A DNA stretch of 64,000 nt. Origin: Microcoleus sp. Its GTDB lineage: Bacteria > Cyanobacteriota > Cyanobacteriia > Cyanobacteriales > Microcoleaceae. The position numbers and the translations under genes were made by a program. Positions 16,643-29,539 of this stretch are shown here, one piece after another; within the stretch, counting starts at the first letter, position 1; every line of letters starts with the position of its first letter. The stretch is taken from positions 512,001 to 576,000 of the forward strand of contig JAYFMW010000017.1 of NCBI GenBank assembly GCA_042408215.1, read 5' to 3'. The notes beneath the pieces were generated by a model. It made no database searches. It was not told the DNA's origin and saw only the letters and a program-made list of their open reading frames with translations.

Positions 16643-17320
16643 CTACCGAGCCCAATCAGTACCGCGCCACATCATAAAAAACAAAACTGCCGAAATCAGC
16701 GCGCCCAGCAGCCACTTAACAGCATTTTTGAATAGCGCCAACCGCTGATTTGACTGAACCGCTGCGCTTTGCGTCTGCAAGCGTTCCTTAGCCGGAGTAA
16801 TTCTCGAAAGAATTTGGTTTTTCAGTTCCTGCGGGTTTTTCGTATCCGCTTGTACCCCCAAACGAGTAAGTTCACTCGCCAAATTATTTAAATCTTCAGG
16901 AGTACCTTTCTTCAAACGTTCTTCTACCTGCTGCAACTGAGCTAATTGTTGCTTTGCTTGAGTAGTAATTTGCTGGTTGTTTTGGTTGTTGACAGAGATA
17001 GTGCCAAAAATTCCCAAAGGCAGCATCAAGATAAATATCAGGGCCAGCAGCAGACACACCCAAGACAACATCTTTAAAAAAATGTCTTCGAAACGTCTGC
17101 GATCGTAATCCTCTCCAAAAAAGATCAGCGCCATTGCTAATAGAGGAACTGGTATCCGTTCCACGAGAGCTCCAATCGTCTGCAATTCCCAGAGACGGTT
17201 GCCAAAATTTGCCGGTGTCAGAACAGCGATCGTATCTAATAACGACAAAATTAATAGACCGTAACCAACCCAGCGCAGCCTATATATAGAAAAACCTTGT
17301 TCGCCTTGTATCTCATTCAT
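16643..17320 (-). CDS. hpsJ: HpsJ-like protein, cyanoexosortase A-associated
   Basis: LRWVGYGLL, WELQTIGALVER.PVPLL, four TM segments and a Gln-rich loop; lies downstream of crtA. Confidence 0.8.
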   Translation of the reverse strand: MNEIQGEQGFSIYRLRWVGYGLLILSLLDTIAVLTPANFGNRLWELQTIGALVERIPVPLLAMALIFFGEDYDRRRFEDIFLKMLSWVCLLLALIFILMLPLGIFGTISVNNQNNQQITTQAKQQLAQLQQVEERLKKGTPEDLNNLASELTRLGVQADTKNPQELKNQILSRITPAKERLQTQSAAVQSNQRLALFKNAVKWLLGALISAVLFFMMWRGTDWAR

Positions 17321-17721
17321 CAGAAAAATGGGTAGAAACCCCGTCCTTTTAGGACGGCTTTACATTTTTGATTTACTACCGCCTTGGGACTGGTTGGCGG
17401 GAGTGTGCTTTTGTGTTGCACTTTCAACGGGACAATTACCGCCTCAAACTTCCCAGCCCTGTACGCATAGTGTTTTGCTCTTTCGAGCCTCCCTTGCGGG
17501 GTAAAGTTAGCCTCGCCAAGGTTTAATGAGCTTGTGCCGGCCCGTAGCACTGTCTCAGTTACCTTAAGACTGTTTAACTACCAGCGACAGAGCTCTTAAC
17601 TAGCTTCGCATTCTCCCGGTGTCGTGACTCAAAAAACGTAGCCAGTTAAGACTTAGGCTGGTCAGAACGGCTTGTTAGATTTTTCCTTCAAGCCTCATGC
17701 CTTTAGGCTGAGGTTCCTGAC
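17321..17721 (-). mobile_element. Non-autonomous IS200/IS605 IscB-type mini-element (omega-RNA plus internally deleted iscB)
   Basis: Subterminal hairpins CCTCAGCCTAAAGGCATGAGG and CCGTCCTAAAAGGACGG; no intact nuclease ORF. Confidence 0.8.
17480..17721 (-). ncRNA. IscB omega-RNA (HEARO-like) scaffold; 3' boundary approximate
   Basis: 5' GTCAGGAAC hairpin, TGACCAGCCTAAG, CTACGTT, GTTAAACAG and TTGGCGAGG motifs in HEARO order. Confidence 0.75.
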
Positions 17722-17779
17722 AGAATAATAGACCTGTTGTTAACAAAATGTCGATCGAAACCACCGTACAGCAATTGAC

Positions 17780-18448
17780 TCAAGGTTCAGGAAATCGCGG
17801 CTGCCACCACTCATACCAAGAAACCCAAGCATTCTCTAGAATTTTCTTGGCATTTTCGGGAGTTGTTTTATCCAACGGCACAGACATCTGAGTCCACAAA
17901 CAGCGCTTGTCTTGAATATTTCCCCTACCCGACAGCCAAAATACAATGCGGTTGAACTGCAAGTCACGAGTATTCCGATTGTATCTAAACTGTTCGTCAG
18001 TCACTGTAGTACGGCCGCGAGGATTGATACAGGAACTCAGATATAGTCGATTTTGCTGTTGCAAAATTCCGTGAAAGCCCACCCTTTGAGTATTTGCTAA
18101 TTCTAGTTTACCAGGAGACGACTTGAGAACAGTATGTCCTTTCATCATACTTTCCACATCCCCACTGGTTCCTACCACATAGCGCATCTCTATTGCTAGA
18201 GCCTGGTTATTTTTTTGATATTCATATTTCCTCCCCACCTTAACTTGTGAAGTATCGCTAATTTTCAGGGGTGCGCTCTTCTGCATTTGCCACTCAGCTA
18301 GAGGCACTGACTCGGGAAACTCAAACGGGGTTGCAGAAAGATTGCCAGCCGATGGGTAGAATGTCAACTTTCCTACAACTAATAAAACCCCTGCAAATGT
18401 CACCGCTAAAATAGAAATTCTAGCTGTTTTCCAATAGGTAATAGCCAT
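17780..18448 (-). CDS. Cyanoexosortase A system-associated protein
   Basis: YLSSCINPRG.TTVT..QF and RCLW motifs; TAATG coupling with crtA. Confidence 0.85.
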   Translation of the reverse strand: MAITYWKTARISILAVTFAGVLLVVGKLTFYPSAGNLSATPFEFPESVPLAEWQMQKSAPLKISDTSQVKVGRKYEYQKNNQALAIEMRYVVGTSGDVESMMKGHTVLKSSPGKLELANTQRVGFHGILQQQNRLYLSSCINPRGRTTVTDEQFRYNRNTRDLQFNRIVFWLSGRGNIQDKRCLWTQMSVPLDKTTPENAKKILENAWVSWYEWWQPRFPEP

Positions 18449-19296
18449 TAGCAATTTGGTTTTTTCTTATTTTGCGGTTCTGGCAAGATGGCAAACCAGC
18501 AGAATAACCCGAAAATGAATACAGCAATCATTGAAAAAATTACTGACCCATTTCCTTCGTGCCAGTATTTAAATGCTTCGGGTTGAGATAGCGATACCAG
18601 CACAGCCATGAGAGCAACTCGCGCTGCATTCACTATAAATCCAATCAGGACTGCAATGATAGGTACTACAATTTTCTGTCCCACAGTTGTAGGAAACATT
18701 AGTAAAAAAACTAGCGCTAGTCCTAACACTTGTAGGATGGCATTGACTCCCGAACAGCCGTGATAGACTTCCACGCTGCCTTTTTCTAATACAAGAAATA
18801 CTCCTTGACGAACTACTTCAAATCCTAAATAGTGCAGGATAAAAGCCGAAAATTTAGCAGTTAATAGGGCGACATTAACAAATACTCCTATCAACCCTGG
18901 AGGAATAGCTGTATAGGCAAGAATTAGCAATTCCTGCCAATATTGTTTCAGTCCTTTTGTTCCTGAAGCCAGCAAAGCGAGACTTATTCCCGACAAGAAA
19001 GGCGTTGCTCTGATAAAAAAGTCGTAGCCAGATATCGACGAACTTTTGAGCAAGATTAAAGCAATTAGCGAAGCCCCAAAGCAACTGCCGAAAACCCCGC
19101 TTTCTAAAGTTAAGGATTCGTGTCTTTCCCAAATTAGAAAGCACACGACTCCCCAAAATAGTAGCATTGTGCCGAATAGGTCGGTGTTTTCTGTTCTCGA
19201 AGTCAGAGTTAGGTGCAGGGCGATCAAACCTGCTGCTATCCCTAATAGCCAGTATTTAGGTTCTTGGAGGTGCTTGAGCCAGTTGATTTCGGTCAT
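18448..19296 (-). CDS. crtA: Cyanoexosortase A
   Basis: Multi-TM; VEVYHGCSG (Cys), NAARV (Arg) and YWHEG (His) exosortase triad. Confidence 0.9.
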   Translation of the reverse strand: MTEINWLKHLQEPKYWLLGIAAGLIALHLTLTSRTENTDLFGTMLLFWGVVCFLIWERHESLTLESGVFGSCFGASLIALILLKSSSISGYDFFIRATPFLSGISLALLASGTKGLKQYWQELLILAYTAIPPGLIGVFVNVALLTAKFSAFILHYLGFEVVRQGVFLVLEKGSVEVYHGCSGVNAILQVLGLALVFLLMFPTTVGQKIVVPIIAVLIGFIVNAARVALMAVLVSLSQPEAFKYWHEGNGSVIFSMIAVFIFGLFCWFAILPEPQNKKKPNC

Positions 19297-29450: not shown

Positions 29451-29539
29451 GGAGAGGTGGCTGAGTGGTCGAAAGCGGCAGATTGCTAATCTGTTAAGGG
29501 TGTTATCACCCTTCGGGGGTTCGAATCCCCCCCTCTCCG
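29451..29539 (+). tRNA. trnS: tRNA-Ser(GCT)
   Basis: GGAGAGG/CCTCTCC acceptor stem, GCAGA-TTGCTAA-TCTGT anticodon arm, long variable arm and GTTCGAATC T loop; CCA not encoded. Confidence 0.97.

Follow-up and report, generated by a model that had tools for sequence, protein, structure and literature searches.

Cyanobacteria carry ISC transposons with an N|ATGA target, an example being ISC1-1_MA of Microcystis (Kapitonov et al. 2016, PMC4810608). Meers et al. (10.1101/2023.03.14.532601) described and tested the DNA-guide pairing of the Y1 transposase TnpA, and the sections of their paper used here further state, in a passage written for TnpB, that protein-less PATEs carry omega-RNAs for use in trans. 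The same sections report that transcription of IscB guides has to come from outside the element, that there is a bias toward co-oriented upstream genes, that the TAM of GstIscB is TTCAT, and that the Rfam HEARO model, RF02033, lacks downstream structural elements, a longer model having been built. Going by the portions of these two papers drawn on here, the element class, the N|ATGA target, the use of orphan guides in trans and omega-RNA-bearing PATEs have thus already been published. The 2009 HEARO paper of Weinberg et al. reportedly notes that some HEAROs lack an ORF and that integration takes place before ATGA; 3′ domains may be drawn in its supplement.

Here, we describe an element in a 64,000-nt stretch of Microcoleus DNA (the window) that is a HEARO by model score and a non-autonomous IS200/IS605 element, and is neither an iscB-encoding ISC nor an IStron. 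Like ISC1-1_MA, as presented in PMC4810608, it starts with 5′-GTCA, is inserted without duplication before ATGA and has Y1 hairpins, and its left end, as in the ISC transposons of that paper, is common to TnpB elements. Unlike ISC1-1_MA, it has no iscB ORF and carries a structured module, which we call L, instead. The phrase "start codon" occurs nowhere in the main text of PMC4810608. With the PATEs and the IscB of ISGst5 from Geobacillus, as treated in the sections of Meers et al. used here, the element shares the TAM TTCAT, a guide beyond the right end and, by analogy, mobilization in trans and retention by cutting of the donor joint, whereas those sections describe neither a module replacing iscB nor docking at the starts of housekeeping genes. 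IStrons, which combine a group I intron with an IS200/IS605 or IS607 element, are likewise described, in the accounts used here, as mobile elements with an extra RNA domain within host transcripts; unlike them, our element has no group I intron match and sits at start codons, not inside reading frames. What is new is the L module, for which we infer a function. Searches of titles and abstracts found neither L, nor a second module (S), nor start-codon docking, and the supplements of Weinberg 2009 and of Meers et al. may bear on L. The match to RF02033 is full-length and the model ends at 17501, L lying outside it; since RF02033 is said to lack downstream elements, L may overlap with the longer model.

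Results

A 401-bp element between a leader and a start codon

The element and its genomic context are as follows.

17321..17721, minus strand: whole element, a protein-less ISC/IS200-IS605 element of 401 bp, without target duplication
16643..17320, minus strand: intact HpsJ-like A gene (cyanoexosortase-A-associated), 225 aa (NF050013, 299 bits), the host gene
17780-18454, minus strand: gene for a cyanoexosortase A-associated protein (TIGR04153)
18448-19296, minus strand: gene for cyanoexosortase A (TIGR03763)

A first-pass annotation had placed the insertion exactly at the start codon of hpsJ. The element does lie directly before an ATG, but the gene that this ATG opens is the HpsJ-like A paralogue: its score against NF050014 (hpsJ) was 65 bits, below the equivalog cut-off of 260, and the NF050014 hpsJ of this genome is located on contig C6 (351 bits). 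The stop codon of the upstream gene is 58 nt upstream of the element, and the upstream operon genes (17780..19296) are the likely source of read-through. A promoter-like site at 17754-17725 was not counted, because one such site was found against 0.7 expected. The window also contains a tRNA gene whose variable arm is long (29451-29539, plus strand).

The borders were examined at 30 loci fetched with the HpsJ-like A protein, 22 of which came from other genomes of the same genus; the element was absent from all 22. In genomes G005 and G008, where the protein is 99% identical, the leader runs straight into ATGAATGAG with no element between, thereby indicating that the insert comprises 17321-17721 and is free of duplication. 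These two genomes read TATTATTTT and the window reads TATTATTCT, with a single mismatch at position -2. The precise empty allele that the first-pass annotation had proposed to seek in relatives therefore exists, and the size of 401 bp proposed there agrees both with these empty sites and with a contig of RNA run X1 that omits precisely 17321-17721. The insertion site is polymorphic among close kin. Units 95–96% identical over their whole length occupy another site in four other genomes, indicating that the unit of about 400 bp moves as a block.

The X1 contig could be taken to mean that L is catalytic, either cleaving itself to free the omega-RNA or helping to splice the element from the mRNA and so restoring the native leader; in the latter form this would be an IStron-like tolerance without a group I intron. 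We consider catalysis by L quite improbable. With 6 differing letters in 500 overall, and with three listed differences on the leader side but none at -2, the X1 contig is most simply the empty allele of a relative, and X2, the other RNA library, contained the filled left junction and no skip. Filled left junctions were present in X2, X19 and X21, with 44, 44 and 38 letters within the element, respectively, and the right junction was bridged by just 30 letters in X2 and X21. The contigs of X19 and X21 (runs whose kind is not on record) show the filled allele and contained no excision joint, but contigs lose rare variants. Two coverage signals, a higher HEARO depth over flanking genes in X1 and X2 than in X19 and X21 and a coverage gap over L in X2, were not taken as evidence; the depth sums many contigs and organisms.

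The insertion had also been said to displace the native ribosome-binding region. The leader is indeed displaced, but its Shine-Dalgarno match is weak (-3.7 kcal/mol; element end, -2.7) and the leader is not conserved among relatives. Over 29 sites, the displaced leaders had a median of -3.7 kcal/mol versus -2.2 for the element ends (p=0.009), and a strong native Shine-Dalgarno sequence lies upstream of several sister elements, as would be expected if splicing restored the native leader. A Shine-Dalgarno sequence supplied by the element was not supported for the type-A and type-B ends.

A 76-codon frame on the minus strand (window 17320-17550) has a stop codon that overlaps the host ATG (TGATG). 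It is probably incidental, because it had no NCBIfam match and the variation by codon position was nearly flat (0.15/0.12/0.12); given also that the most open frame contained a stop in 10 of 38 copies, a coding role was rejected.

Ends and target motif

17321..17362, plus strand: left end (type A), with DNA guide GAAA at 17335-17338 and hairpin at 17341-17357, assigned from guide/target covariation and DNA fold
17689..17721, plus strand (transposase top strand): right end, with guide CAAG at 17689-17692, hairpin at 17693-17713 and TGAC at 17718-17721, assigned from the sequence
17316..17320, plus strand: target motif and TAM, TTCAT (ATGAA on the minus strand), which includes the host start codon

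The order on the transposase top strand is TCAT|...GAAA-hairpin at the left end and CAAG-hairpin...TGAC at the right. Both of the end hairpins seen in the first-pass annotation are present, the DNA fold of the left-end stretch having a z of -3.8 (0 of 200 shuffles as good) and that of the right-end stretch a z of -1.4 (16 of 200). Pairing of TGAC with CAAG was seen in 42 of the 70 HEARO copies of this genome. Among its type-A left ends the guide tracks the target, in the combinations TCAT-GAAA (at least 21 ends), TTAT-AAAA, TTAC-AAAG and TCAC-GAAG, and because the Y1 guide at the left end, GAAA, reads TCAT, the element lands exactly at the ATG. As in non-autonomous, PATE-like IS200/IS605 elements, the guides match the cleavage motifs, the target is not duplicated and there is no protein gene. 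The genome contains 20 matches to the Y1 transposase family PF01797, and an intact 135-aa Y1 TnpA ends inside a type-A left-end hairpin. A TnpA lies near 496.1 kb of contig C20. A type-B left end (G000:C8:73225-73284, G000 being this genome) adjoins an ORF that resembles an IS607-type serine recombinase. Read on the mRNA strand, the left end of the element is a U-rich tail without a Shine-Dalgarno sequence, directly before the host ATG.

Omega-RNA scaffold and guide

17501..17721, minus strand: HEARO/IscB omega-RNA scaffold (RF02033), which begins with the right-end hairpin
17722..17741, minus strand: predicted guide, placed by the published IscB geometry; it is the native leader of the host gene and lies outside the element

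The HEARO/omega-RNA motifs recognized in the first pass were confirmed by the covariance model, RF02033 matching at 125.6 bits against a gathering score of 83 over model positions 1-211, the full model; this is one of two Rfam matches in the window. The proposed geometry also agreed with our analysis, the guide lying beyond the right end and the TAM, ATGA(A), 3′ of the target. A search of this genome for other targets of the guide gave no ATGA-adjacent match of at least 10 nt with at most one mismatch. Sixteen iscB ORFs longer than 380 aa are present in the genome, the RuvC and HNH motifs being kept in 14 of them as judged by eye from an alignment, and the IscB whose scaffold is closest to this copy (78% identity) scored 468 bits on NF040563. 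The closest IscBs of the genome lie near 38.3 kb of contig C8 and near 407 kb of contig C3. All 16 iscB elements with a located left end adjoin ATGA. Since the anatomy of the element and the published mechanism agree, it is plausible that intact IscBs of this genome would use the guide of this copy in trans.

A different view would be that the element is an inert passenger, mobile by its ends, whose omega-RNA no longer guides and whose docking reflects host tolerance alone, L being kept for the mobility or RNA stability of the family rather than for the host gene. This view, which we consider unlikely, gains from a scaffold helix at element positions ~105-135, in which four consecutive pairs are broken in this copy (AAGA, versus CCCT in the nearest sisters) and the segment misfolds. 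The helix is intact in 95% identical sisters, and 10 of 47 copies are equally weak or weaker there. This copy may therefore be a weakened guide. Against an inert omega-RNA, the scaffolds of 18 orphans (HEAROs with no iscB start behind them) showed compensatory change at 30 of 61 predicted pairs, a conservation of structure that reaches far past the end hairpin and argues for continued use of IscB by the family. In addition, the highest HEARO scores in the genome belong to orphans, and the score of this copy remains above the gathering score.

L, a structured RNA module at the place of iscB

17366..17506, minus strand: L module, in place of iscB, with two small hairpins and a long stem leading to a three-way junction, and with invariant loops

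This segment had been read as a short iscB remnant. That identity was rejected, because tblastn of the 16 long IscB ORFs of the genome against the element gave chance matches alone (best E 0.16); the segment is a conserved, covarying RNA structure of about 140 nt. In 14 copies from the same genome, 15 of 35 pairs were compensatory and 94.3% of cells were paired; none of 500 shuffles was as good, and slid controls reached 35–42%. In 38 copies, 37 of them from other genomes, 15 of 28 pairs were compensatory and 93.8% of cells were paired; because the structure was derived from the same alignments and the copies were found with its model, both sets of counts lean in its favor. G-U cells outnumbered A-C cells by 97 to 5, indicating that L folds on the transcribed strand and not on the strand read by TnpA. 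L is under selection as RNA, and the role proposed for it below is drawn from its position and conservation. Such covariation of L, like that of the scaffold, extends across many orphans and beyond the needs of the end hairpins, contrary to what an inert passenger would be expected to show.

The unpaired loops around the three-way junction are invariant, as would suit a catalytic RNA. In a search of 17250-17800 against Rfam at E<=10, however, HEARO alone was found, with no ribozyme, riboswitch or group I intron match for L. A likeness to RNase P was rejected as not significant: 43 of 1000 shuffles were as good and nhmmer gave no match. Within iscB-bearing loci (model R2, 17 sources), L gave only weak matches, to the shared first hairpin (E>=0.088).

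The covariance model detected L in all 24 genomes of the same genus, and in 3 of 16 other genomes of the order; of 150 genomes sampled from the phylum, 15 contained it. An exact scan for the L motif in 185,579 species genomes returned at least 116 stretches, and the 80 matches listed were all cyanobacterial by title, including Microcoleus, Tychonema, Nostoc, Anabaena and Dolichospermum; three contigs of viral collections also matched. Among the 119 L loci from these stretches and viral contigs, HEARO was directly upstream of L at 109 of the 112 loci with enough flank, and 60 of 95 distinct junctions from other cyanobacteria (11 loci without a located end and 8 duplicates having been dropped) open a long frame versus 18% expected. 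L also occurs behind more distant scaffolds (L239, L294), and at locus L318 it precedes the last codons of iscB, as if the gene had been replaced.

In this genome, L was present in 20 orphans and in two more places without a HEARO match. At G000:C6:981478 and C30:395423, L was kept and the omega-RNA scaffold was mostly or wholly lost. Conversely, one start-codon insertion that other species share retains its ends in G000 but no longer has L or most of the scaffold. Host expression thus does not depend on L at every site, and L is not needed once the omega-RNA is gone. That the insertion stayed at this old site after losing L would also be in keeping with an inert passenger.

Docking at start codons across the family

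The genome contained 70 HEARO matches, 64 of them above the cut-off. By a start-motif rule, 26 were followed by an iscB start and the other 44 were classed as orphans, of which 39 were retained after two without a left end and three with a non-ATGA junction were dropped. Twenty-seven of these 39 ATGA-docked orphans open a called gene by a fixed rule, or 29 when petL and petM are included, whereas by the same rule 2393 of 15809 ATGA sites outside genes do so (15%; 27% in the most AT-rich leaders). Gene starts were taken from our own crude hexamer-model gene finder and the copies are related, so that p-values for docking overstate the case. Nine of 16 iscB-bearing elements were at starts (10 of the 26 had no located end), as were 8 of 22 non-HEARO elements with ATGA ends, and one of 79 same-type ends with ATAA or GTAA targets had a start no more than 30 nt away. 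Enrichment of the non-HEARO ATGA ends indicates that part of the start bias is independent of omega-RNA transcription, as host tolerance of an inert passenger would predict. The docking site is therefore not special to hpsJ; the present element is one of about 40 sisters, most of them at starts, and it docks via the transposase target motif.

The genes behind the sisters, named from 20 downstream ORFs scanned of 30 fetched, include rpsP, rplS, fusA, chlB, psb27, petL, petM and those for signal peptidase I and DAHP synthase, and rpsP and rplS are single-copy genes. Copies that are not at starts have closer paralogues (median 0.88 versus 0.84, p=0.02) and look younger, which suggests retention at starts rather than targeting. 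Of 42 orphans, all but one leave long frames uninterrupted, although precise splicing by a catalytic L would permit intragenic insertions.

Twenty-two orphans of this genome, two of them assigned by eye, carry module S instead of L (L111-L130 are examples). In S, two hairpins follow one another, alike in an almost invariant CAACCAUA loop but with differing stems, and GNRA-type hairpins lie on both sides. Four S-type elements (G000:C28:196231, the C30:557131 region, the C4:3901 region and C30:231083) run past the type-A left end into a second end-like segment of about 100 nt, which adjoins the start of a long ORF in three of them. In a HEARO tree, L, S and iscB elements were intermixed with mostly weak support, and we claim no order of events.

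The kinds of gene involved raise the question of whether the element is a domesticated regulator, in which translation of a set of host genes is tuned, either by IscB on the leader omega-RNA or by a ligand of L. Besides the sisters at the starts of rpsP, rplS, fusA, petL, petM, chlB and psb27, this would fit the greater share of L-type copies at starts (17 of 20, versus 12 of 22 S-type; p=0.047) and the several insertion sites common to more than one species. We nevertheless regard regulation as very improbable, because the target genes are functionally unrelated, 99% relatives differ in whether the present site is filled, G000 lacks an insertion at 22 of the 37 comparable sites of relatives (some of them weakly aligned), and L has no riboswitch match.

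Individual start codons showed further rearrangements. Different element types occupy one start codon in different genomes at L163/L164/L074, at L175/L178 and at L134/G000:C17:185218 (psb27), suggesting repeated independent insertion; from their translations, we take the first of these genes to be psbD-like and the second gatB-like. At the DAHP synthase gene in L166 (G017) and L167 (G008), unlike at G000:C29:113166, the first four codons flank the element on both sides. This 12-nt duplication, which leaves a 12-nt self-match beside the TAM, possibly arose by recombination between insertions at Met1 and Met5.

Discussion

The account that we favor, and hold to be probable, is that the insert is a non-autonomous ISC-type IS200/IS605 element in which iscB has been replaced by a structured RNA module. 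A Y1 TnpA encoded elsewhere would move the element, and pairing of GAAA with TCAT would let it land before ATGA alone; here the motif is evident from sequence covariation, the activity of TnpA is presumed, and the mechanism is established in other systems. Copies would then persist where ATGA is a start codon, since no frame is broken there and the host promoter transcribes the element. The enrichment at starts was observed directly, and retention of this kind is its presumed cause. By extension from Meers et al., the host transcript would contain the 20-nt leader guide joined to the scaffold. An IscB encoded elsewhere would bind it and cut the empty allele, whether produced by excision or brought in by kin, and repair would restore the element. 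L, as RNA on the transcribed strand, would most likely form a processing or stabilizing boundary between the omega-RNA and the host mRNA, and the host gene would stay translated, with initiation from the U-rich tail of the element. The boundary role is suggested by the lack of an element-borne Shine-Dalgarno sequence, even though essential genes sit behind such elements.

More tentatively, and with considerable doubt, guide-only OMEGA transposons might have evolved RNA domains (L, and S with its two CAACCAUA-loop hairpins) which take the place of the nuclease gene and which process the host transcript or recruit a factor, thereby freeing a trans-acting guide for IscB and keeping essential genes such as rpsP and rplS translated. 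If this were true, the L and S domains would represent functional RNAs of a new class and might be catalytic; if L were without effect, the element would be an ordinary omega-RNA PATE. The new part of these observations is a widespread and strongly covarying RNA module at the place of iscB, in elements that lie between leader and start codon. Dozens of genes carry such elements, some of them single-copy and essential, and the family thus lends itself to testing directly how host genes escape silencing by a structured insert of 400 nt, and by what route IscB guides are excised from host mRNAs. L may also serve IscB tools as a natural 3′ stabilizer or processing signal.
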